NCBI GenBank assembly: GCA_051294905.1
Contig: CM119372.1
Location: 35,156,001 to 35,220,000, forward strand
From: Botryllus schlosseri
Taxonomy: Eukaryota
Reading direction: 5' to 3'
DNA length: 64,000 bases
Below, piece by piece: positions 1 to 16,390 of this stretch; position 1 is the stretch's first letter, and the number at the start of each line of letters is the position of its first letter. The translations under genes and the position numbers were made by a program. Under the pieces are notes generated by a model. That model saw only the letters and a list, made by a program, of their open reading frames with translations. It made no database searches and was not told the DNA's origin.

Positions 1-2204
1 TCATAAATTATCATTTGAATAAGTAATTGTAATCATAAAACCAAACTTGCGAAAGTCATTACCATAACAAAAGAATATTGTAGGTTGCTTGCTAAATGTA
101 TGCCGGAAATATTTGTAGAACGCTCACGACCAAAGAAATCGGAAATCTCCCTATTGTCATTCGTCAAAGTATATGTTGGCACAATACTCATCCCGTAAAA
201 GATCCTACTTGTATCTGATTGAATCGCCGGTAATTAACTCGCTAAATCAAACCATAAGGAAATTTCACTCACTCATCGGATATGAAACAGCGTCGCTTAA
301 TCGGCGTAGATCGTTTTTCTAAATGCAAATCATACCTGACCAACAGAAAACAATTTTCACTCACCTTGTAATGAAACCAAGTGGTGGACCTTCGTTCAAT
401 ATTTTGTTTGTGTCAAATACTTTGCAATAAACACACTGGAGTGGTCGAGCTTTACATCAGCAGACTGCAATCTGTAAATCAAGCTTACATCCGACTTGTA
501 ACTGTATCGTTTACCTAACCAAGTTGTATGCACAGTTTGATATTTTTTGTTATTTGGTAATTGCTGAATATACTACTTCGAAATACTCCCTTGAACGTAA
601 TTTCCATCATCGTAATAATCGAAGTACATTTGTGTCGAATTCGTAACAGCCGACTATGACATGATAAATTTTTGACAAGTTATGCTTGGAAGATTGGTTG
701 TATATCACGAAAAATAATTACCGCTCATATTGATACTGTTATCCATTGTTCGGTATTTTCAAACGAGTAAAATTTATTACTTGAGTTACTCCGCTTAATG
801 CAAATGTAAACACAACCGTCTTTCAACATCACAAAGACATCGATACAAAGTATACAATCAAACGCAGCAAGTTTTACTTTTGTAGGTTGTGTATGATTAT
901 CCTGCATAACTCATTTCTTACCAAAGCCATATGAAATATATTCATGTTACACGAAAATATTCCCATGCTACAAACCTATACAATGATTGGTGGTGCTTTC
1001 AAAATGTTTCGATACCTCAAGAACTTTATTGTCTCAATGGATGTTCATACATCTTAATAATCAAATAGTTCAACACAGAACTAATACGAACAGAAACATC
1101 AGAGTTGTTTACACAAAAGTTTGTATGTGTACAGTATGTGAATACCATGTGTAAGTCCAGCCCAATTGTGGTATCCATCCGGGTTTAGTTAACACAATTT
1201 ACAACACCGAGGTCGCGTCATCTTTCGTAAGACAACAAACCAAGGCTTCAGGATATGTCCATGTCATAGCAATAAATCAGCTACTCCAACAACAGAGTGC
1301 ATATGTTTCTAGTTACGGTGCTTACATCTTACACACAAATCGACCTACTTTGCTAACGAAAAGTGCTGAGTCATCAACCGATTGCCCTAGCAACAAAACA
1401 GCTAAACGTACTATCATACAAAATGGCCGTTATAGTCACCAACGGTACATGGTACAAGTAACAAGTCTCGAGAATTCAGTTATTCAAAAAACGCGAAAGT
1501 GTTTCTATGCCAAGTCGTTATGTTTGACGAAAGCGTATATTGTAGTATTATGATCGATTTGCATTCGTTGGTCACAAAATGTCACTACTCTAAATAATTA
1601 TTTTTCACTCAAACACAAACGCGTACTTGTCACCAATCGTTTTCATCAAGCACGAGTTCAAGAAACCTGCTACGACATGAATTCCGATTTAGTTTTACAA
1701 ATATTTTATAATTGTTTTTATTAACACTATATCAATGTCATCAAGTTGAGTGTTTACGATATTAGTGTGTAGGTGTCTGTGTCATACTTGGAGGATCCGT
1801 ATTACAATTGACTCGAATTGACTAAATGTAAGAAGGGTTGAAATGTTTCGAATCGATTCATAAGTGGTCTTCGTTGTGGTTTTCGTCGGACATACAGCAC
1901 GAACTAACTGTAGACTCCTCTCTGTTGTGCAGCTACTCGGTAATCGAAATGCATTAACATGTAAACAACGATCTTGTTTTCGTCACACCAAAAATATGTT
2001 CACTATCGCGATACTCTGCACAAGACGTGCATAGCCTTTTCACACTCGTAATAGTATACCAACGTCAAGCGATAACGTTTAACAACACCAACGACACTAA
2101 ACCCACGACGTTTACCTATGTAAAATTACCACTTTCACTTGTCAGTCCATCGTTTACCTGACTAAACATATTATTTTCCTTTGGAGATCTGACGTTTACC
2201 CAGA

Positions 2205-2520
2205 GTAAGAAACCATTTTCACTTGTAAATATTTTTTTTTCCTCGGCTAACAAACCTTTTTTCACTTGTAAATATTTTTTTTTTCCTCGGCTAACAAACC
2301 TTTTTTCACTTGGAAATATATTTTTTCTCTGGTTAACAAACCTTTTTCACTTGGAAATCTATTTTTTCTCTGGTTAACAAACCTTTTTCACTTGGAAATC
2401 TATTTTTTCTCTGGTTAACAAACCTTTTTCACTTGGAAATATATTTTTTCTCTAGGTAACAAACCTTTTTCCCCGGGTAACAAACCTTTTTCCCTGAGCA
2501 ACAAACCATTTTCACTTGGT
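2205..2520. repeat. ~41-bp minisatellite, left arm (unit ~AACAAACCTTTTTCACTTGGAAATATATTTTTTCTCTGGTT)
   Basis: Visible tandem copies; mirror of 5260-5710. Confidence 0.9.
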
Positions 2521-5259
2521 GGTCCGTCGTTTACCCGAGTAAAAATATCGTTTTCTTTTGGAGATCCGGTGTTTACCCAGTGTAACAATACATTTTCACT
2601 TGGAAAAATACTTTTACCTAGAGTAGCTAATCATTTTCTCCTGGGTAACAACCCCTTTTCGTCTGGAAACTATCATTTACCTGAGTACCAATACAGTTTT
2701 CACTTGGAAATCTACCTTCTCCCTGGGTAACAATATCATTTTCGTTTTGAAAACTGACAACCACACCGGACAATTCGATATTTTTGTATATTGTTACAAC
2801 GGACAGCGACAAAATATACACCAACAACGACCCCGATACATTTGTCTAATCAAATATTCACTTGCTCTGATGCATCCCATCAAAATCATTGGTTACTCAC
2901 ATGTAATGCACTGTACATCGATGTGAATGTTTTGGAAAATTGGACAATAGACTTCGATAGTTCTGTGATGTCCGGGTTCGTGCTTTGGATTTTCAAGAGT
3001 CAAAATGTCTGAATAAAACACCTCCTCGACGATGGTTGGTATGTGGATAACGGTGTTCGGAAAACGGTTGGATTTATGTCACCCATCGCGATAACAATTC
3101 CAGGTCGAGTTTTCCCCCTGCATGTTTACTATATTGTGTCTTTATTGGTCAATGTATGTCTCGACATTCAGTTTGAAATCGGAAACCCTGATAAAGTATG
3201 TAACCGGATCCGGATATCAACTCTGAATCGATAAACCAATGAACAATATTCAAAGTAAACATGGTACACCCTGTGTTTCCACGAAAAATACCATCCAGAC
3301 ATACGTCGCGCTTGTTTGCCCACACCAGTATACACGCAAATGGAGGTGTGTGACATTGCATGCAATGTGTTGGTATACAAACATCGATCCACAGACATTA
3401 TCATAGCCGGTAGTTTTGATGTAGATCGAATGTCATCACACCCGATAACAATGTCATACCAATAAGCCACATTGCAATGACTCTGAGTCCGCGCTATTAC
3501 ATCGATATTTCGACACCGTTCACTGATTTACTCGATGGTTTTATCGTGTTGTAACATTACAAGATAGTCATGACCCTATCTGCAGACGGACCACCCAGAC
3601 CAATTGGATACATCGGTCAATATCGATCGTGTTGTCGACACCGAAGTTTTCTGCTGTAGCGTTTGACCATGGTGAACTATCGAAGTACGGTGCTCGAAAT
3701 GATTGCGATCAGTCTTTCAGACACGATGCATGGATGTCACTACTCCCACATAACGACTCCAGATAAATATCGTGAACAGTGATTCTGCAAATCTCGGGCT
3801 GATACTGTGATCCAATAAGGTGTGTTTCTGTGGAATGAAGACTGCAATCGTACACCACAATAGAACACTACCTCGCGATTTCACACGCAATCATAAAACA
3901 CATCATCGTAAGGGTCCAGTTCGTCTGGCAACATTTCGAAACGGTCATCGCCACAAGAGATCGAGGTTGCGCTCGCCGTATCGGTAGCATTTTGACACTG
4001 TCATCACCACAAGGCTATTGACGTCGTTTCGGTCGGTCATGTCAATCCGTTTTACAATTTACCGTTTTTCAACTCCCCGCACCATAGTGTTACGACACAG
4101 ACAAGAAGCGTCGGTGGAAATAATAAAACACGGAAAGCATACTTTGGTGTTATTTGACATGGATTTTACACCCGACGAACCTTACATTCGAGCGATGCAT
4201 TGGAATGACGCTTGTATTATTGACGTAGAAGGAACTGAAATGTATCGATTTATTGGTTTCGTACATTGGATATTGACCGATGTATCCAATTGGTCTGGGT
4301 GGTCTGTCCGGAGATAGGGCTATGACTATCTTGTAATGTTACAACACGATAACACCATCGAGTAAATCAGTGAACGGTGTCGAAATATCGATGTAATAGC
4401 GCGGACTCAGAGTCATTGCAATGTGGCTTATTGTTATTGTTATCGGGTGTGATGACATTCGATCTACATCAAAACTACCGGCTATGATAATGTCTGTGGA
4501 TCGATGTTTGTATACCAACACATTGCATGCAATGTCACACACCTCCATTTACGCGTATACTGTTGTGGGCAAACAAGCGCGACGTATGTCTGGATGGTAT
4601 TTTTTCGTGGAATGTAACATGTTTACTTTGAATATTGTTCATTGGTTTATCGATTCAGAGTTGATATCCGGATCCGGTTACATACTTTATCAGGGTTTCC
4701 GATTTCAAACTGAATGTCGAGACATACATTGACCAATAAAGACACAATATAGTAAACATGCGGGGGAAAACTCGACCTGGAATTGTTATCGCGATGGGTG
4801 ACATAAATCCAACCGTCTTCCGAACCCCGTTATCCACATACCAACCATCGTCGAGGAGGTGTTTTATTCAGACATTTTGACTCTGGAAAATCCAAAGCAC
4901 GAACCCGGACATCACAGAACTATCGAAGTCTATTGTCCAATTTTCCAAAACATGCATTTCGGTGTACAAGAGGATATTGTATGTGGGTAACCGATGATAT
5001 TGATGTGATACGACTGAAGGGGGTATACTCTGAAACCGGTAGTCCGTGTATATTTCCGTCACTGTTCGTTGTAATCTATTTCAAACTATCGTCAATACAA
5101 CAAATACCAAATTGTCAGGTGTGTTTGTCAGATTTCAAAATGAAAATGGTTTTGTTACTCTAGGAAAAGCTAGATGACCAAGAGAAAATGTATTGTTACA
5201 CTGGGTAAACGCCAGATCTCCAAAGGAAAATGATATTTTTAGTCAGGTAAACGACGACC

Positions 5260-5710
5260 CGCCAAGTGAAAATGGTTTGTTGCTCAAGGAAAAAATATAT
5301 TTCCAAGCGAAAAAGGTTTGTTACCCAGGGAAAAAAATATATTTCCAAGTGAAAAAGGTTTGTTACCCAAGAAAAAATATATTTGCAAGTGAAAATGGTT
5401 TGTTGCTCAGGGAAAAAGGTTTGTTACCCGGGGAAAAAATATATTTCCAAGTGAAAAAGGTTTGTTAACCAGAGAAAAAATATATTTCCAAGTGAAAAAG
5501 GTTTGTTACCCAGAGAAAAAATATATTTCCAAGTGAAAAAGGATTGTTACCAAGAAGAAAAAAATATTTCCAAGTGAAAAAGGTTTGTTGCCCAGAGAAA
5601 AAATATATTTCCAAGTGAAAAAGGATTGTTGCTCAGGAAAAAATATATTTCCAAGTGAAAAAAGGTTTGTTAGCCGAGGAAAAAATATATTTACAAGTGA
5701 AAATGGTTTC
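5260..5710. repeat. ~41-bp minisatellite, right arm (unit ~CCAAGTGAAAAAGGTTTGTTACCCAGAGAAAAAATATATTT), more copies than left arm
   Basis: Visible tandem copies; produces the repetitive spurious ORFs 5193..5468 and 5585..5803 (KIYFQVKKVC). Confidence 0.9.
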
Positions 5711-8700
5711 TTACTCTGGGTAAACGTCAGATCTCCAAAGGAAAATAATATGTTTAGTCAGGTAAACGATGGACTGGCAAGTGAAAGTGGTAATTTTACA
5801 TAGGTAAACGTCGTGGGTTTAGTGTCGTTGGTGTTGTTAAACGTTATCGCTTGACGTTGGTATACTATTACGAGTGTGAAAAGGCTATGCACGTCTTGTG
5901 CAGAGTATCGCGATAGTGAACATATTTTTGGTGTGACGAAACAAGATCGTTGTTTACATGTTAATGCATTTCGATTACCGAGTAGCTGCACAACAGAGAG
6001 GAGTCTACAGTTAGTTCGTGCTGTATGTCCGACGAAAACCACAACGAAGACCACTTATGAATCGATTCGAAACATTTCAACCCTTCTTACATTTAGTCAA
6101 TTCGAGTCAATTGTAATACGGATCCTCCAAGTATGACACAGACACCTACACACTAATATCGTAAACACTCAACTTGATGACATTGATATAGTGTTAATAA
6201 AAACAATTATAAAATATTTGTAAAACTAAATCGGAATTCATGTCGTAGCAGGTTTCTTGAACTCGTGCTTGATGAAAACGATTGGTGACAAGTACGCGTT
6301 TGTGTTTGAGTGAAAAATAATTATTTAGAGTAGTGACATTTTGTGACCAACGAATGCAAATCGATCATAATACTACAATATACGCTTTCGTCAAACATAA
6401 CGACTTGGCATAGAAACACTTTCGCGTTTTTTGAATAACTGAATTCTCGAGACTTGTTACTTGTACCATGTACCGTTGGTGACTATAACGGCCATTTTGT
6501 ATGATAGTACGTTTAGCTGTTTTGTTGCTAGGGCAATCGGTTGATGACTCAGCACTTTTCGTTAGCAAAGTAGGTCGATTTGTGTGTAAGATGTAAGCAC
6601 CGTAACTAGAAACATATGCACTCTGTTGTTGGAGTAGCTGATTTATTGCTATGACATGGACATATCCTGAAGCCTTGGTTTGTTGTCTTACGAAAGATGA
6701 CGCGACCTCGGTGTTGTAAATTGTGTTAACTAAACCCGGATGGATACCACAATTGGGCTGGACTTACACATGGTATTCACATACTGTACACATACAAACT
6801 TTTGTGTAAACAACTCTGATGTTTCTGTTCGTATTAGTTCTGTGTTGAACTATTTGATTATTAAGATGTATGAACATCCATTGAGACAATAAAGTTCTTG
6901 AGGTATCGAAACATTTTGAAAGCACCACCAATCATTGTATAGGTTTGTAGCATGGGAATATTTTCGTGTAACATGAATATATTTCATATGGCTTTGGTAA
7001 GAAATGAGTTATGCAGGATAATCATACACAACCTACAAAAGTAAAACTTGCTGCGTTTGATTGTATACTTTGTATCGATGTCTTTGTGATGTTGAAAGAC
7101 GGTTGTGTTTACATTTGCATTAAGCGGAGTAACTCAAGTAATAAATTTTACTCGTTTGAAAATACCGAACAATGGATAACAGTATCAATATGAGCGGTAA
7201 TTATTTTTCGTGATATACAACCAATCTTCCAAGCATAACTTGTCAAAAATTTATCATGTCATAGTCGGCTGTTACGAATTCGACACAAATGTACTTCGAT
7301 TATTACGATGATGGAAATTACGTTCAAGGGAGTATTTCGAAGTAGTATATTCAGCAATTACCAAATAACAAAAAATATCAAACTGTGCATACAACTTGGT
7401 TAGGTAAACGATACAGTTACAAGTCGGATGTAAGCTTGATTTACAGATTGCAGTCTGCTGATGTAAAGCTCGACCACTCCAGTGTGTTTATTGCAAAGTA
7501 TTTGACACAAACAAAATATTGAACGAAGGTCCACCACTTGGTTTCATTACAAGGTGAGTGAAAATTGTTTTCTGTTGGTCAGGTATGATTTGCATTTAGA
7601 AAAACGATCTACGCCGATTAAGCGACGCTGTGTCATATCCGATGAGTGAGTGAAATTTCCTTATGGTTTGATTTAGCGAGTTAATTACCGGCGATTCAAT
7701 CAGATACAAGTAGGATCTTTTACGGGATGAGTATTGTGCCAACATATACTTTGACGAATGACAATAGGGAGATTTCCGATTTCTTTGGTCGTGAGCGTTC
7801 TACAAATATTTCCGGCATACATTTAGCAAGCAACCTACAATATTCTTTTGTTATGGTAATGACTTTCGCAAGTTTGGTTTTATGATTACAATTACTTATT
7901 CAAATGATAATTTATGATCACTACTTTGAGCAATACAAACACATTTTTTTAGATTTCAGTGTAGCGCCTATTGCGATTTTGTTAATGCTATGAGTTTTGT
8001 GTATCACTCAAGTCTAGTAGAATAGGATGCGTCCAGTAAAGATATTCCAAATTGCTTCTGTGTTGATCAAAGTCTTGAAGTGTAAATCTGTAGACTTCAC
8101 AACATCTTAGAGAGTGCGAACGGAATTATGTATTGATCGCGCGCTTCAAACGGTACTCGATACCCAAAGTGATATTTTCACACTCTGTAAGTTGTGTATG
8201 TTTCAATGCGCTGTCACAAATCTCGACAATAAATCGTATCAATTGTTGGATTCAATAGTAACGCCGTGTCATTGTGATATACTCTACACTTAGTCGTTTC
8301 AATTACCCGTTGTGAATTAGACCAATAAAGCATTTTGCATCGGGTGTTGAATGTAATAATACCGATATTGTTGTTTCAACTTTAGTCTTGGTTACTGGAA
8401 ATATTTTCTGATATCCGCGATACGCAGAGTGATTTTTACCAAGGTGGAGTAATTTTCCTATCGAGAACATTTCAGACACACATAGTTTTGCAGCTTAATA
8501 TGTTAATAACATTGGTACTGAAAAGTTTGTTGCTGTCATAACATTTACCACAACGCGTGGTCTAATTAACGCAAATAATTTAATAATAAAATAATGATCA
8601 ACTATTATTAGTTTGCGTTTGAAATTTTGTCTAATCAATGTGTCAATCCTTATGTTTACATCATGATAATTTTCGATATAACACCTGCGTTCGATTGTAA

Positions 8701-9825
8701 GAAACTACGATGGTCATACTTTCAAATGTCGTATACTCAAATATATTATGTTAACCTCAAGTCGCCGACACCGAGAAGTAATTACTTTTGTCTTACAAAA
8801 TATACCTCATAGTAATTTCTTTGTCTTGTGGCATAGTAACGACTTTTACAGTTAAACAAAAAAGACGAGTTGGTGGTATATGCCTAAAACCGAACTTGAT
8901 ATGTTTGTGGGTTGTAGTGATTACTTGCGTAGTCTTGTCTACTTTTCGTATGGACACTTTTTGCTTTGGTTCGGTGAGTTACAAACGGATTGACTTGACA
9001 AGGTTTTTGTATTTTACTCTTTTGTTGATGGCAAGATGTTAAAATGTTGAGATGTCATAGTGATGATATTTCTGAAACTCTCTTTGACAAACGTAAAGAC
9101 AGGTCGCGAATAGAGTTGTAATGTTTCATTACTTGTTTCGAATCAATGTGCGTATAATCTCTAAATATGACTGGGTTGAAAGTTGTTAGTCATGTTTGTC
9201 AATCTATTTCAATTCAGACTATGTCAAAGTCCAAATATTTCATTTTGGATTATCTGGATTTACCTTTAGTACATCTCGCGAGTGGATTCCGACGTCGTAC
9301 TATAACATTCTTAAAAATAAAGACTCGAGGATTTTCAATCAACAATACTGGAATTTTTTTGATAATGTTAGAGATGGCGAATGATTAGTTGCGTGTTTTT
9401 GTTAAGAGTTTGATTTCATGTTGATAAAGACAATAACTGTATAATGCACATACTTGCGATTCTTGATTCTTGTAGAGTTATAGTTGGTATTGATTCTATA
9501 GCTATGAAAACGACGGCGCGGAGTGTGCGAATAATTCGATGTGGCTGAAAGTCGGTGTCAGTAATATTCAGGTTGCAGTCGAATCAACAGATCACGAAAA
9601 GATTTCTCAAAATAATTAGAATTGTACCGAATTAACACATTCAGATACGAATCAACTTGAACTGTGTAGTGAGTTTCATTTCGAGTTGACAAATTGACGC
9701 ATTGATTGAATATTCTCATGATTTGTATCACGCAACTAAAGTCAACCACTCTTCTGAAGTGTCAAAACATATAGCGATCGCGGGCAAGTGACAAATTGTT
9801 GGTTTTGAATCACCGTCTGCGACGG

Positions 9826-10357
9826 TTCTGTGACAAACTAATTACCGAAATATTACCTTGTGAGCGGGTATGAGAGAGTGCTATGTCTGCAGCATTATCC
9901 GGTGAGTGGTCGTTGGATTTTAAAATTATATCACAACCTTTTGAATAAGCGTTCACTTCACAAAGGATTAGGGTTAGAGCGGAAATAAGTGACAATTTGT
10001 CGCTATTCAAGTTACCGACACTGGCGGTCTGTTATTCGTTACTTATTAAATCTTACGAGTGAAATCAAGTTCTGCGACAAACTGATTACTAAAATTTCAC
10101 CGCGTGAGCGAGCATGAGAGAGTGCCATGTCTGCAGCATTATCCGGTGAGTGGTCGTTGGATTTTAAAATTATATCACAACCTTTTGAATAAGCGTTCAC
10201 TTCACAAAGGATTAGGCTTAGAGCGGAAATAAGTGACGATTTGTCGCTATTCAAGTTACCGACACTGGCGGTCTGTTATTCGTTACTTATTAAATCTTAT
10301 GAGTGAAATCAAGTTCTGCGACAAACTGATTACTAAAATTTCACCGCGTGAGCGAGC
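9826..10357. repeat. ~244-bp direct tandem duplication (~2.2 copies)
   Basis: Near-identical ORFs 9810..10010 and 10039..10254 (starts offset 244). TTCTG(T/C)GACAAACT(A/G)ATTAC recurs at ~9826, ~10070, ~10314, with a degenerate copy at ~10598. Confidence 0.9.
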
Positions 10358-10849
10358 CAACACGAGTTTCCAATACGACATGCGAGAGATACCTATACTT
10401 GAAAGTACGACGTGCGAGCGCACCCATAAGAACACATGGCGAATCACCACCTCAGCCTATACCTGTAACGTTATCATGTCACCCGAGTCATTATCTTGTC
10501 AGAGATCGCGGGGTTTTGCAAACTATTTCACACATTTTTGAAGTGTTAGTTTGTGAACGCGGTTATTGTTGATATTCGAATCGCCGACTACGCCGGCTCT
10601 GCGGTAAACTAATTACCAAAATATTACCTTGGAAGTGATTCCTAGATTTAGCAAACTATTTCGCACTGACTGGATTAGTGTAATAATCGATACGATAGTA
10701 GCACAAAACAGCTGCACGGGCAACAATTCAGCGCGCAGGTCATTCGAAATATAGGTCGCACTGCTTAATCCTCACAACAAGCCACGTTTCCGTTTGTGTG
10801 GTTATTGTTGGTGACTCGTACATATTCAACACCACGCGAGAGATGGCCG

Positions 10850-11135
10850 AAAGTGCGAATCACGACCCCGCCCATAAGAACACACGGTGAATCACCACAG
10901 AACCCGTAAGAATACATGAAATACGACTCACCGCCACCACCTATAGCAAAAAAGGCGAGTCACCACCCCGGGTTTTCTGGCGCGTCACCGCCGCAGCCTA
11001 TAGCCGAAAAGGCGAATCACGACCGCACCCATAAGAACACATGGCGCATCACCGCCGCAAGGGGGGTCTAAAAAGGCGCATCACCACCCCCGATTTTCAG
11101 GCGCGTCACCACCCCGCCCATAAGAGCCCCATTGC
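10850..11135. repeat. GC-rich subterminal short repeats (GGCG(A/C)(A/G)TCACCACCCC, CCCATAAGAACAC)
   Basis: Motifs recur several times immediately inside the ACTACT terminus; another copy at ~10420-10460. Confidence 0.75.
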
Positions 11136-11162
11136 GTCATGCGAGCGAGCGACTATACTACT

Positions 11163-11819
11163 CACGGGGCCTTTGAAGTCCATACTAATGCGTTCCCATG
11201 GGCGAGTGGCTCTGACAAGTTTATGATGCTCGGTGTTGTTGAAAAACCTAGGCTTCAATTCAGAGCATTGTCTACAGAAACCACAAACCTTTTTGACGTC
11301 TTATATTGAATATGGTAGGTTTTTGGATTTAACAAAATGACTTAACCTGCGGATGCCCGGATGTCCCAAGATGTTGTGAAGTTCGCGTAAATCAGTGGAC
11401 AAAGCCGTTAGACTGCAAATCCGAAAGATAGTGTCAGGCGCAATATTTTCTACTCCTGGCTTGTGAACAATCTCGTAGTCGAAAACATTAAGTTCCAGCT
11501 TCCACAGTGTCAATTTAGTATTTTTTATTTTACTGCGATGCTTTTTTTGAAAAATGAACGACAGGGCCTTTTGGTCAGTTATCAATCGAAATTTAGGACC
11601 ATGTAAAAGGTACCCCCACTTTCTTATAGCATGCATGATTGAGGCTGCTTCTTTTTCGACAGTAGGATAATTTAGTTCACTTTTAGCAAATGTTCGCGAT
11701 GCAAATGCCACAGGTCTACCTCGCTGACTGAGAATAGCAGCAATAGCTTTGTTGGACGCATCACATTCAATTTCAAACGGTTCAGATTCGTCAATATAAC
11801 AAAGGGATGATTTTATCAA
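11163..11819 (-). pseudogene. pol: Gypsy pol: RNase H plus integrase N-terminal HHCC zinc finger and start of core
   Basis: ORF 11301..11819 has ECDAS, EKEA, TDQK, NIAPD and HNILGHPG. Reading through the TAA at 11301-11303 gives DVKKVCGFCRQCSELKPRF...RPWERISMDFKGPV, ending at 11163. Confidence 0.93.
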
Positions 11820-12585
11820 GTCTTTCCTTCAGAACAATGAATGAGGTCAGGGCAGGCCCACTCAGTGGAAAAACTGAATTGCTAAGCATTGGTTTGATTT
11901 TATCAGAAAAGCTTGGAATCCACTTTGAATAATATGCGAACATACCCAAGATCCTTTTCATCTCTTTATCCGATTTAGGGGGTGGCAACTCAATCAACGG
12001 TTTCAGATGATCTGGGTCGGGTTTAATGGATCCGTGCGACACCAGATGGCCCAATAGACGCAGTTCACTGACGGTATAGACGGATTTGTTCTCGTTCAAC
12101 GTTAGTCGACAATCAGATGCGGCTTTGAGGAAAGCTTGAAGTCTCTCGTCGTGTTCCGCGGCATCTTTACCGAATATAGTGATGTTGTCCAAGTAAGCCA
12201 GAGTCCCCTTCAAATTGTAGTCGTCGATGAACGAATCGATAAAACGTTGGAACGCAGCCACTCCATTGGTGATACCGAAAGGCAATCTGCAAAACTGATA
12301 AAGGGAGTCGCAAGCTTCAAAGGCGGTAAACGGCTTGTCAGATGAAGACAGCGGGACTTGGTGATAAGCCGACTTCAAATCAATAGTCGAATATACTTTA
12401 CCTTTCGACACTTCATTTACGATAGTTTCAATTTTTGGCAAGGGATACGCGTCAAGCGGAGTATACCTGTTTACGGTTTGCGAATAATCAATGACAAGTC
12501 CTTTCTTGTGCCTGGAATCCTTCGTAACCAATACTTGAGCACGCCAAGGAGAACGAGAAGGCTCAATTATTCCTCCTTCGAGTAA
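11791..12585 (-). pseudogene. pol: Gypsy pol: reverse transcriptase (frameshifted to RNase H)
   Basis: IIEPSRSPW, IDY..VN, YPLP, IDLKSAYHQ, LPFG..N, YLDN, LGH motifs in ORF 11791..12612. Confidence 0.96.
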
Positions 12586-13404
12586 GGCCCTTTCCATACC
12601 GGATTTACGCACAAGTTCCGAAACAGGCGATGTTCACATAGAGAAAAAATTACCGAAACAGTTCCGAGAAAAGAGCGCGTTCATACCTATTTAGAGTTAC
12701 CGCGAACTTATGTTCATACCGGTCGTTTTTCGGTAAATTCGCGGAAATTATGGCCAGTATGAACGCGATTCTCCGTAAGTGTTGATAGTTACGAAACCAT
12801 GTCTGTGGGGTGTTCCAGTTGCAATATGCTTGTGGAAAACGATGTGGGAGAGGCATATTCGTGAGATGCGGAGAGGTTGGCTCCAACTTTTAGTTATGGG
12901 ATGTTGCGGATATGCTTTCTCGATGTGTATGGAGCTCTATACTCAATATACCTGTATCAGTAATAGAGCCCGAGCATGTTCCTGGCTTGTATATTATCAA
13001 CCGAAGCTGAGATCAGAAACTGAAAGCCAGCAAAGAGGATAGAGTCCTGGAATGAAAAGAACCACCGATCACATCTGCGTACGACAAAGTCAGTTTATCT
13101 TTGTGATTGCTGTATAATGGCTTGGGTAAATCTAATCTTATGTACACTGTATAGAAAAACCAGGGAATTCAAGAAATCCGTAAGAGAAACATTTGGTATA
13201 CTCTGCGACGAGCTTCGAGACCATAACGAAAAGCAGCCAGCAAATTATACGAACTCAATTTCTCTTGCTTGCTGAGTAGCTGTCGCTCTTTTGAGGCTAG
13301 CCAATGAAGCCAATCGTTTGTAGATCCAAGTAAACATCAGATGTATTTTAAGAAGGCAACTATGTCACAAGTTGATTTAAATAAAAATAATTGCTGGTGC
13401 CTGG

Positions 13405-13854
13405 TAGGGCTAGCCACAATGATTGGAGTACTCGAATCTGAATCGAGAAATAACTTTAATGATTCGAGTCGAGTAGTGAAATACTATTTTTCGAGTACTG
13501 AAATTATACTGAAAGTTGATTTACTAACGAGAATATACCGTAGTTTTGATACTATTTTTCACTGAGTAAGCCCTGAAACCTTGATTGGCCGTATCGCAAC
13601 ATACGTGATATAGTACAAAGCTACGAACGTTGCTGGAAATAACACATTTTCGAAGTCATGACCATCCCATAACACTGTCAAGCAGTGCAATGAAAATGGT
13701 ATGGTCGAAAAAACACCAGAGTATTTTTAATGTGACGGAAAATAGGTGTTCTACACATTTGAATTTTGGCATGGTACATTGTGTTGTGATGTCATCATGA
13801 TGATATACTCGACTCGAATCGAATTACTCAGGTACTCGATTTTGCCCAGCCCTA
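13405..13854. mobile_element. hAT-type MITE (TAGGGCT...AGCCCTA)
   Basis: Imperfect TIRs; TSD GTGCCTGG/GTGCATAG (6/8). Confidence 0.55.
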
Positions 13855-14430
13855 GTGCATAGTAATATTTCTATATTTGTCATGGCGGAATGTCAGCCAG
13901 TTTTTGCGTAGCATACCACTACAAAAAGGTCAGACAAATTTGATCTTGAATCTTTATGTTAGAAAAAGAAGTCTGAAAGACCAATTGTTCTTGCCAAGTA
14001 GGCTACTTTCTGTCTCAAAAGTAAGACCCAAATTGATGAAAAATAGACTTAAACTGGAACCTGAGCAGTCAACACAATGACTTGGACTCGAGTCATAAGA
14101 CCATGACTCGAACTCGACGCTCTGCTCAATGAGTTGGACTCGGATTTGACTCGGTGGTAAATTGAAAATGACTCGACTTGTGACTTGATTACAACCCTGC
14201 TCACTTATTAAGACTGAAATTGCTGAAAATGAGGCCTAATTTGTATAGTTTTTGTAGTGTAGTCAGACATGTACATCAACCTACTCATTTAGTTACTTTT
14301 AGTTACTAAAACTAAGTACTTCTAGTTGTGGATTTGAAAAAGTGAATAGTTTCTGGTTCTAGTTGCGGATATTTGAAAGTGAGTAGTTCTAGTTCTAATT
14401 GCAGATTTTGAAAAGTTGATAGTTCTAGTT

Positions 14431-15088
14431 CAGGGCCGGCCAACCGGTGGCCCGCGAGTTAATTTCCGAAATTTAGTAGTATTATCAAAAATGGACTGCA
14501 CAGACTGTGAACTTGCAAGGCCAATCAAAAATTTGATTAGTCTGGCCGCCACACTTGAGATGTGATGACTGAAAATCAGTTCCGACGCATTGGTAGATCT
14601 ATGAGCCAGTCACATTTTGGTAGATATTCGTACACTACAATAAAGCAGAATACTTTGCGATAGATTTATCAAAAATAAAAATTTTCTACACGCGTAGCGC
14701 AACATCTTGTCACTCGATTTCTTGCATTTAATATCGTTACCCCTTCGTGAAAATGAAATAACTCCTAATCTATCAGATTGAGTCTAATTATGTATATATT
14801 CGCGACCTTCCGTTTGCGCTCGCAGAAAGACCGTCGACTATGAAACCTAGGCACAAAGTGATTGCCGCATGTTGGACAAAGCTTTCGATATCGATATGTC
14901 CAGGTGCCGAATCGTCCAGTCCTTGCAAACTGAGCCCAGCGATATACAGCAGGCTTGCAATGTAGTCAAGTGACAATATTCTTAATTTATCAACTTCAGA
15001 AAGTTTTCGCGCTTAACGCGGCTAGTGGCCCGCAGAATAGTTCGTCAATCGAATGTGGCGTTTTGGCTGAATAGGTTGGCCACCCCTG
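14431..15088. mobile_element. hAT (Charlie/Buster-type) MITE inserted in an AGTTCT-rich repeat
   Basis: Ends CAGGGCCGGCCAACC / GGTTGGCCACCCCTG; perfect TSD TTCTAGTT. Confidence 0.85.
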
Positions 15089-16390
15089 TTCTAGTTACTA
15101 GTTTGAAAAATTGAGTAGTTCTAGTAGAAGTTGCGCATTTTGAAATTCAAGTACTTTTGTACAACTGTTGTGGGTGGATAAAAAATTACCACAGCAACAT
15201 TTGTACCAAACATGCATTTGCTGCAAGCTTTTCAGGATGACTTCATGATTGAGAGCCAGAGGGTTCCGTACTTCCCTGAAACACAAATAGAGCATAAGCT
15301 AAAGCTAATTTCAAATATGTAATATAAATTTCCTTTCTGCTGCCCTTAAAATTCACAATTGCTTTTTCAGAAACTTAGCAAAGCACACATGAAGGTTAAA
15401 AGATTTCGGTCGACTGAAGGCTTTACTCAGAAACTGCAATCCGCTAAGGCCAGAATGATACAAAGGATGGTATACGCAATGAAGACAAGACCTGGTGGTG
15501 ATCCAAGTATCGCTGGCCCAGACGTCGGAAATGCCCTGTGTGACTTTCTCAATAAACAATGCTCTTGCTTAACCAGATGTGTTTGTTTTATTCATGAGAA
15601 AAACTATAACTTAATGCACACTTTCACAGTTCCACATTTTTCATCAGTATCCTCCATCTAGACCTGCGAAAAGATCAGATTAAGTTACACTTGCATAACA
15701 TTGCATAACAAAGGAATGACTTGTTTGCAGCAAGAAAATGAAGGCATAGGTAAAAACCAAATTAAGGCTTGGATGATGTACAATGGTTTACCAGCCGTTG
15801 GTACAATTTCGATTTTGGTTGGTGATTTAGAGCGAAGGACATCATTCTCTGCTGTGCTGCCACTATCAAATCAGATGTTACTAAATCCCCTTTTCAGTAG
15901 GCGTATATGACGGTGTAACAAATTTGGTAAGGGTTAAGATCGCCTACCAAATTAGTGTTGAAGTCCTCAAGTTTTCAGGCAACTCACCCAATGCTGCATC
16001 ATTTGGAGATGGTGTTCTACATTTTTAGCCGTGCTCTGTTTACAAAACCACAGAAAAAGAAGCTGACTAGTAGTCAGTGACTACGTATTGTGAGCATACA
16101 TAATAGAAATCCAAGAATAATGAATTCCCAACACCATTACACAGGTAGCTGACCTCGAAATACAAGCAGCCTGAATGAACAGCGCGTTACCGTAACTAAA
16201 ATATTGATTGACAGCGTTCCGGGAACCCAGCTGCGCCATTCGTGTTCAACTGTTCATACTCAGTCGGTCCCGTAAAAATCTCCGAAAATAAGCGCGTTCA
16301 TACCGCCCCGAAAAACCAGCGTTATGTTCACATAGAGAGGTTCCGGTAAACATTTTCGAGAAATGTTATTCCCGGAACCCCGGTAGGGCC

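Follow-up and report, generated by a model that had tools for sequence, protein, structure and literature searches.

What kind of mobile element consists of almost nothing but its own inverted repeat, and how does it come to sit in a chromosome? The question is raised by C2:35156001-35220000 of the Botryllus schlosseri genome assembly (495 Mb, 219 contigs), a stretch of 64,000 nucleotides that we refer to as the window and whose first 11 kb belong to a large palindrome, the studied copy of which is called element A. Because the left end of element A lies outside the window, 9 kb of upstream sequence were added to the analysis. Element A occupies C2:35152756-35167162 (14,407 bp, no N) and is, with good confidence, a non-autonomous, palindromic and gene-poor satellite of the Maverick/Polinton elements present in the same genome. 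Its left terminus, AGTAGTATAGTC, precedes window base 1 by exactly 3,245 bp, and its right terminus, ...GACTATACTACT (the last letters being ...GCGAGCGACTATACTACT), lies at window position 11162, so that the right side extends by the same 3,245 bp past the mirror of base 1 around a palindrome centre near 3959. The original prediction, made from the window alone, had placed the end of the symmetry about 3.25 kb to the left of base 1 and had anticipated an element of about 14.4 kb with arms of about 7 kb and a loop of about 0.65 kb; the measured arms of about 6.9 kb and loop of 644 bp agree closely with it. Window 1-1979 is complementary at 100% to 5939-7917, further arm blocks found in the repeat search reach inward to 3624/4269, and in the genome search the last 313 bp of the element matched C2:35152756-35153068 at 100% in opposite orientation. 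The outer arms (element positions 1-5761 and 8654-14407) are 99.3% identical when gaps are counted and 99.98% identical over ungapped columns, the inner arms (6119-6869 and 7514-8254) are 94.3% identical, and the inverted repeats together make up 96% of the element. Chance is excluded as the source of a 7-kb inverted repeat.

Immediately outside both ends of element A stands the hexamer CACGGG, the target-site duplication that had been foreseen. Five other copies of the interrupted retroelement (94-96% identical) served as empty sites, and in each of the five the sequences of both flanks run on without interruption and share exactly one CACGGG where they meet, showing that element A is an insertion with a 6-bp target duplication. 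The target, a Gypsy-like retroelement, lies on the minus strand, with reverse transcriptase (RT) and RNase H encoded by its right flank; the left flank, where the remainder of the Gypsy integrase was to be sought, encodes positions 23-102 of the 102-position rve profile, beginning at flank-frame residue 6. As the profile is resumed at position 23, the insertion of element A cuts the integrase core domain.

Element A belongs to a family, for which all counts given here rest on the 40 best-scored matches of each genome search. The 313-bp end probe returned 1,898 first-look candidates, and most of the best 40 of these form convergent pairs; with a mid-arm probe (window 8200-8999), 34 of the best 40 of 2,031 candidates form 17 convergent pairs spaced 7.7-12.3 kb apart, and the remaining 6 are unpaired within the scored set. 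Other palindromic copies had thus been rightly expected: B (13,841 bp), C (15,154 bp) and E (13,927 bp), compared with A over their full length, are full palindromes with outer arms 99.4-99.97% identical, whereas D (9,327 bp), likewise compared, has only 653-bp inverted ends. The eight palindromes with measured sizes span 13,285, 13,566, 13,841, 13,927, 14,313, 14,407, 15,137 and 15,154 bp. AGTAGT...ACTACT termini were found in all ten end pairs compared, nine of which carry a perfect 6-bp duplication (A CACGGG, B AACATA, C CTAGTA, D AGCGAC, E TGCGTC, H AACGTG, J AACGTA, K GTGGTC and M ATCGTT); in the tenth, copy I of 29.7 kb, five of six duplicated bases agree and the arm ends are 98.5% alike. 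For H, J, K, M and I the comparison covered the outer 1.1-2.6 kb of each arm, and some end-pair boundaries were set at AGTAGT by eye where the script had run over into complementary flank bases. Many palindromes of the same build therefore sit at different sites with different target duplications. Copy F, with its 100-N gap and triplicated arms, was left out of all counts; its locus (C16:1578701-1600900, 21 kb) holds three 100%-identical arm blocks and is probably a mis-assembled palindrome. By the loose first-look counts of 900-2,000 per probe, perfect palindromes of this family may account for several megabases of the genome, a load that would bear on both its assembly and its stability. Of the 31-letter words sampled from the loop region, a fraction of about 0.4 is present in sequencing runs labelled as two other organisms; one RNA run among these, X21, gave 0 reads, and this gives no evidence of the family in other species.

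The same genome contains Mavericks with coding capacity. Copy D (C7:25714911-25724237) carries densely packed minus-strand frames, among them an integrase with rve and chromo domains (E 1.3e-15 and 2.2e-9) and a P-loop ATPase with weak A32-like matches. Copy G (C14:21243661-21260582, 16,922 bp), with AGTAGT ends, the duplication CAAGTT and a 635-bp terminal inverted repeat (TIR), has the same genes, rve plus chromo integrase and P-loop ATPase included, and in addition a frame of 1,222 amino acids. D is collinear with G except for the loss of most of G 7,398-15,579 and is accordingly an internally deleted Maverick without polymerase. Residues 430-1222 of the long frame of G have 24 relatives at E <=1e-5 (best 7.5e-160), 5 of which carry PF03175, and the atlas places the frame among PF03175 clusters with a score of 0.96; a PF03175 profile search of the genome gave no match, but neither did it in any control genome, which makes it uninformative. 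The DNLCAFRC stretch in the N-terminal third of this polymerase-bearing frame (L044:570-4235, minus strand), which has no Pfam match, is reminiscent of OTU-like cysteine proteases. A 432-amino-acid frame, with 97 scored matches in the genome and relatives across animals, gave a confident structure model (predicted local distance difference test, pLDDT, 88.6) with a double jelly-roll, and Foldseek matched this model to capsid proteins of Singapore grouper iridovirus, PBCV-1, Sputnik and mavirus (E ~6e-16 to 4e-12) and to many viral capsid proteins in BFVD. Judged by its predicted fold, the 432-amino-acid protein is a double jelly-roll capsid protein; PDB sequence searches with the capsid and polymerase frames returned nothing useful. 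Among 113 scored genome matches to the integrase of D, 79 are at least 95% identical over nearly the full length, 74 of them without a stop, and from these near-identical matches the helper family looks recently expanded. All Polintons encode polymerase and integrase by the definition given in PMC5499653, and the vertebrate Mavericks described in PMC8097293 have 5'-(AGT)2//(ACT)2-3' ends and 6-bp duplications. Elements of the G type, which combine polymerase, integrase, a virion module, a 6-bp duplication and (AGT)2 ends, are Polintons/Mavericks in this sense.

The link between the palindromes and these coding elements lies in their ends. That the terminus would be shared with polymerase-encoding elements was borne out: the terminal 511 bp of A are 91% identical to D, and about 500 bp are 85% identical to G, the copy whose 1,222-amino-acid frame is related to PF03175 proteins. 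Measured from the tip, the sequence TCTTATGGG stands at 38, 127 and 284 in A, C and D, with 37 and 280 the matching positions in G; in the right arm of A, CCCATAAGA motifs lie at 10871, 11028 and 11117 within the terminal block, with a fourth at 10423 just to the inside of that block. The terminal 509 bp of D are 96-97% identical to the palindromes C and E and only about 85% identical to other coding copies, which argues that ends have been exchanged between coding elements and palindromes. In D the outer 509 bp are of the palindrome type on both sides, and further inward its 653-bp repeat has the sequence type of the coding elements. In this copy end modules appear to have been exchanged and then copied to both ends.

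Beyond the ends, element A has next to nothing in common with its presumed helpers. With blastn, the comparison of A with the helper beyond the terminal stretch gave only one weak patch (166 bp at 75%), and with tblastn all G frames of at least 60 amino acids matched A and C only in the terminal repeat, apart from two chance-level matches (E ~0.01). Since similarity to the helper stops after the terminal ~0.5 kb, the arms of A are not a mirror copy of a helper genome end. None of the 37 frames of at least 60 amino acids in A (window 3527-10959) had a Pfam match, and no transposase frame was found among them. By Pfam and tblastn, A thus lacks the polymerase frame, the rve integrase and the capsid and packaging ATPase module of an autonomous Polinton, and has what is expected of a non-autonomous Maverick, namely (AGT)2/(ACT)2 inverted ends homologous to those of a coding element and a 6-bp duplication.

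From A, B, C and E, both arms were aligned over their outer 5.3 kb, giving an alignment of eight half-elements. The arms within one copy are 99.74-99.98% identical, while A, B and E differ from one another by 0.5-1.0% and from C by ~8%. Among 3,505 gap-free columns 295 are variable, and 280 of these have the same base in both arms of every copy; the 15 asymmetric columns fall in B (13), A (1) and C (1). Even when only the close trio of A, B and E is counted, differences of the symmetric kind number 41, compared with the 15 asymmetric ones. Because 280 of the 295 differences are mirrored, the palindrome must be inherited as such, with a change in one arm reaching the other: the arms of the palindromes evolve in concert. 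The same holds next to the loop. In a set of 13 copies with loop differences of up to 6-8%, the innermost ~195 bp of the two arms reach 99.0% identity or more in 10; the rearranged element A, L053 (98.0%) and L055 (90.2%) depart from this. Copy I, with its decayed duplication, leans slightly towards drift of the arms after insertion.

The expectation that the element would contain no core gene was only half right, in that none of the helper's genes is present in A, whereas the family as a whole is not gene-less. The loop, which measures ~935 bp in 12 other copies compared with 644 bp in A, contains an open frame of 91-93 amino acids starting MSIRFTI in all 13 loops compared. In the diverged copy C its homolog has 92 amino acids and is 60% identical, while the rest of the C loop cannot be aligned to that of A save for a 55-bp patch located ~250-300 bp upstream of the frame in both copies; a contig of run X9 starts at 3733, the first base of this patch, which may be a regulatory or 5' transcript element. 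Against C, the ratio of nonsynonymous to synonymous substitution rates (dN/dS, Nei-Gojobori) is 0.15-0.20, dS being saturated at 1.4-1.7; among members of the family it is 0.26-0.58, and by these ratios the frame is under purifying selection. What it encodes has few relatives: there was no Pfam match, the structure model was unusable (pLDDT 47.8), a word-index search returned only one protein, 99% identical, and tblastn did not find the frame in the helper copies G and D. A profile search added one more 91-amino-acid variant and two WD40-repeat proteins, matched at E ~1e-4 via 5-6 repeated stretches and a weak lead at most. The single-cell RNA run X23, of which ~3% was read, gave 37 reads at least 90% alike, with a small sense-strand peak over the loop frame, too thin for a claim of expression given the high copy number of the family.

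In element A itself this frame has been altered. It retains residues 1-76, and its tail is changed by a junction at 4266/4267, to the right of which the usual loop sequence gives way to the left part of the loop plus inner arm, copied in inverted orientation. The inverted replacement (4266-5009) is 97.4% identical to an L052-like copy of another subfamily, compared with 95.7% to A's own left side. With its right inner arm being a patch from another subfamily, A must have undergone recombination or template switching between family members. Among the best 40 of 869 candidates, a match spanning the junction was found at A's locus only, and an X9 contig leaves the window sequence exactly at 4266/4267 and continues with the usual tail. 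Element A is thus probably a dead-end insertion in which the tail of the frame was changed.

These observations are best read as integration of the palindrome in trans by a Maverick/Polinton integrase. The helper integrase, and probably the protein-primed replication machinery as well, would recognise the ends and move the whole palindrome. During replication or transposition a single-stranded intermediate would snap back on itself to form a hairpin of 7 kb. This would be the panhandle or racket proposed for such elements taken to an extreme, and is the likeliest cause of the symmetry; mismatches in the hairpin would then be repaired or copied across, keeping the arms alike. The non-coding arms may act as a stuffer that holds the element at 79-90% of the helper length. 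Panhandle and racket models have been published for protein-primed replicons and Polintons (PMC11886824, PMC4196379); according to the account in PMC11886824, direct evidence for them is lacking.

Several points weigh against this satellite reading. The ends of A are only 85% identical to those of G, the one polymerase-bearing copy compared, and D, the copy with closer ends, lacks the polymerase. The 1,222-amino-acid frame had no match in a Pfam search, and its third catalytic motif looks atypical when compared by eye with the usual motifs. The stuffer and packaging idea, which may apply, is drawn solely from the narrow size range of the eight measured copies, and both mobilisation by a helper and the hairpin intermediate are proposals built from sequence. 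Ordinary gene conversion at the resident locus could also keep the arms alike, and their likeness is no proof of a process coupled to replication.

Arm-to-arm gene conversion is known from large sex-chromosome palindromes, whose arms it keeps alike. Symmetry maintained in this way within the chromosome, with no replication or transposition intermediate, would compete with the mechanism step only, and we consider it possible though somewhat unlikely. Mirrored differences are equally expected from it, and the inner arms of L055 and L053, at 90.2% and 98.0%, show that the symmetry is not absolute. Conversion would, however, have to be fast in every lineage, since lineages 6-8% apart in the loop or ~8% apart in the arms are each nearly perfectly symmetric, with at least 99.0% identity of the inner arms in 10 of 13 copies; copy I, moreover, has the 98.5% that would be expected if arms drift once movement stops.

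Three other explanations concern the element as a whole. The original prediction had likened A to a snap-back/copy-back defective genome. In its simple form, with A as a literal copy-back (snap-back) defective Maverick genome for which the polymerase copied one helper end and turned back, the product then being integrated here, this is now very unlikely. It would account for a palindrome with two identical virus-type ends, and the private junction at 4266/4267, which extends the palindrome inward, indicates that a turn-around was re-formed once in A and that such events occur in the family. Yet the arms share nothing with the examined helpers beyond ~0.5 kb, as DNA or in translation, and the same arms and loop recur at many loci with different duplications instead of having formed at A's locus. 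This recurrence, together with a loop frame under purifying selection, marks the palindrome as an inherited lineage and no fresh accident. A foldback transposon of another superfamily, such as Drosophila FB or Galileo, with Maverick-like ends by coincidence, is highly improbable: over ~500 bp the terminal sequence is 85-97% identical to the ends of elements encoding integrase, ATPase and capsid protein, the 6-bp duplication and (AGT)2 ends are those of Mavericks, and no transposase frame was found, even though very long inverted repeats with internal tandem arrays (41 bp and 244 bp here) are also described for FB and Galileo (PMC3573991). Finally, it is scarcely credible that A arose through misassembly or through the local inverted duplication of repetitive DNA. 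The gap and identical arm blocks at locus F do indicate that the assembler struggles with such elements, but precise ends with target duplications at 10 loci, the five paralogous empty sites, the differences between copies mirrored in both arms and the absence of N from A all speak for real insertions.

A bolder version of the satellite reading is unlikely as a whole: the palindromes could be true satellites of an endogenous animal virus, replicating as snap-back hairpins on Maverick machinery, packaged in Maverick capsids and encoding their own 92-amino-acid protein, which would act in the satellite's favour or interfere with the helper. If so, hairpin replication would explain the identical 7-kb arms, and packaging would explain why unrelated, non-coding arms hold diverged lineages at 79-90% of the helper length. 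The snap-back defective genomes of adenovirus would then have a natural counterpart that is inherited through the germline, and the mobile elements of eukaryotes a life-style new to them. Adenovirus forms snap-back inverted-repeat DNA in incomplete particles, and short helper-dependent adenovirus vectors undergo size-driven rearrangement. The palindromes resemble this system in their protein-primed linear-DNA helper, in the mirrored copies of one end and in a length near that of the helper genome. They differ from it in that the adenovirus arms are helper sequence and are not inherited by the host, whereas here the arms are unrelated to the helper past the ends and belong to a heritable, multi-copy family with its own small gene.

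The inverted repeats of FB and Galileo are far shorter than 7 kb, and these foldback elements have other transposases, ends and duplication lengths, in contrast to A, whose ends and duplication are of the Maverick type and whose coding relatives are Mavericks. Long, internally repetitive inverted repeats and little or no coding capacity in most copies are what FB and Galileo, the latter a member of the P superfamily (PMC3573991), have in common with A. To the Mavericks of PMC8097293, element A is similar in its end motif, 6-bp duplication and subterminal repeats, and it has ~0.5 kb of terminal sequence in common with the coding Mavericks of its own genome. The Mavericks reported in that source have TIRs of 46-1,447 bp, lengths of 12.7-24.6 kb and eight core genes, and another source gives TIRs of 100-1,500 bp; the inverted repeats of A, at ~6.9 kb each and without a single core gene, are of a different order. 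As in the panhandle and racket proposals (PMC11886824, PMC4196379), a displaced single strand would pair its inverted ends and make both ends alike again, with the difference that those proposals, as set out there, concern short terminal repeats and the pairing here would span almost the whole molecule. We found no published description of palindromic Maverick derivatives in a search with subscription journals and Repbase outside its coverage, and TIR-length outliers are possible in the supplement of PMC8097293; no Polinton paper appeared among the 15 entries of a tunicate-directed literature search. Mavericks/Polintons are regarded as viruses with a second existence as transposons, and their replication and movement are not known to have been demonstrated. 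The palindrome family would offer natural reporters of two things, a limit on packaging size and the panhandle intermediate proposed to form from a single strand. It would also suggest that satellites possessing their own gene can accompany virus-like transposons in animals.

Features of element A and its right flank, in window coordinates.
Feature	Position	Strand	Basis or remark
Left arm, inner 3.6 kb	1..3624		whole arm is element 1-6869, from C2:35152756
41-bp tandem-repeat array, left arm, 7.5 units	2206..2519		repeat search (repeat families D1-D3); mirror array 5262-5714
Loop of element A, unique, 644 bp	3625..4268		self-comparison; other copies ~935 bp
55-bp patch	3733..3787	+	loop comparison; 91% identical to diverged copy C
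Loop reading frame, 92 amino acids in element A	4039..4314	+	residues 1-76 match the family's frame of 91-93 amino acids; tail differs
Private rearrangement junction	4266..4267		loop comparison and genome search across the junction
Right arm, 6,894 bp	4269..11162		element 7514-14407
41-bp tandem-repeat array, right arm	5262..5714		repeat search
Subterminal tandem repeat, 244 bp, 2.2 units	9825..10357		repeat search (repeat family D4)
Terminal ~511 bp common to coding Mavericks	10652..11162		85% to copy G, 91% to copy D
ACTACT terminus	11157..11162		mirror AGTAGT at left end, outside the window
Right target-site duplication CACGGG, 6 bp	11163..11168		second copy directly outside the left end
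Interrupted Gypsy-like retroelement	11301..12633	-	RNase H 11301-11828, RT 11791-12633; integrase continues left of element A

An Rfam scan of window 1-11200 gave no match. The 41-bp arrays lie ~5.5 kb from each end of the element and separate the outer arms (99.98% alike) from the inner arms (94% alike), and their unit numbers vary between the two arms and among copies. The interrupted retroelement (window 11163-12633 plus the upstream stretch L031:4913-5755) is itself repetitive, with at least 16 copies at 93-96% identity over a 400-bp probe.

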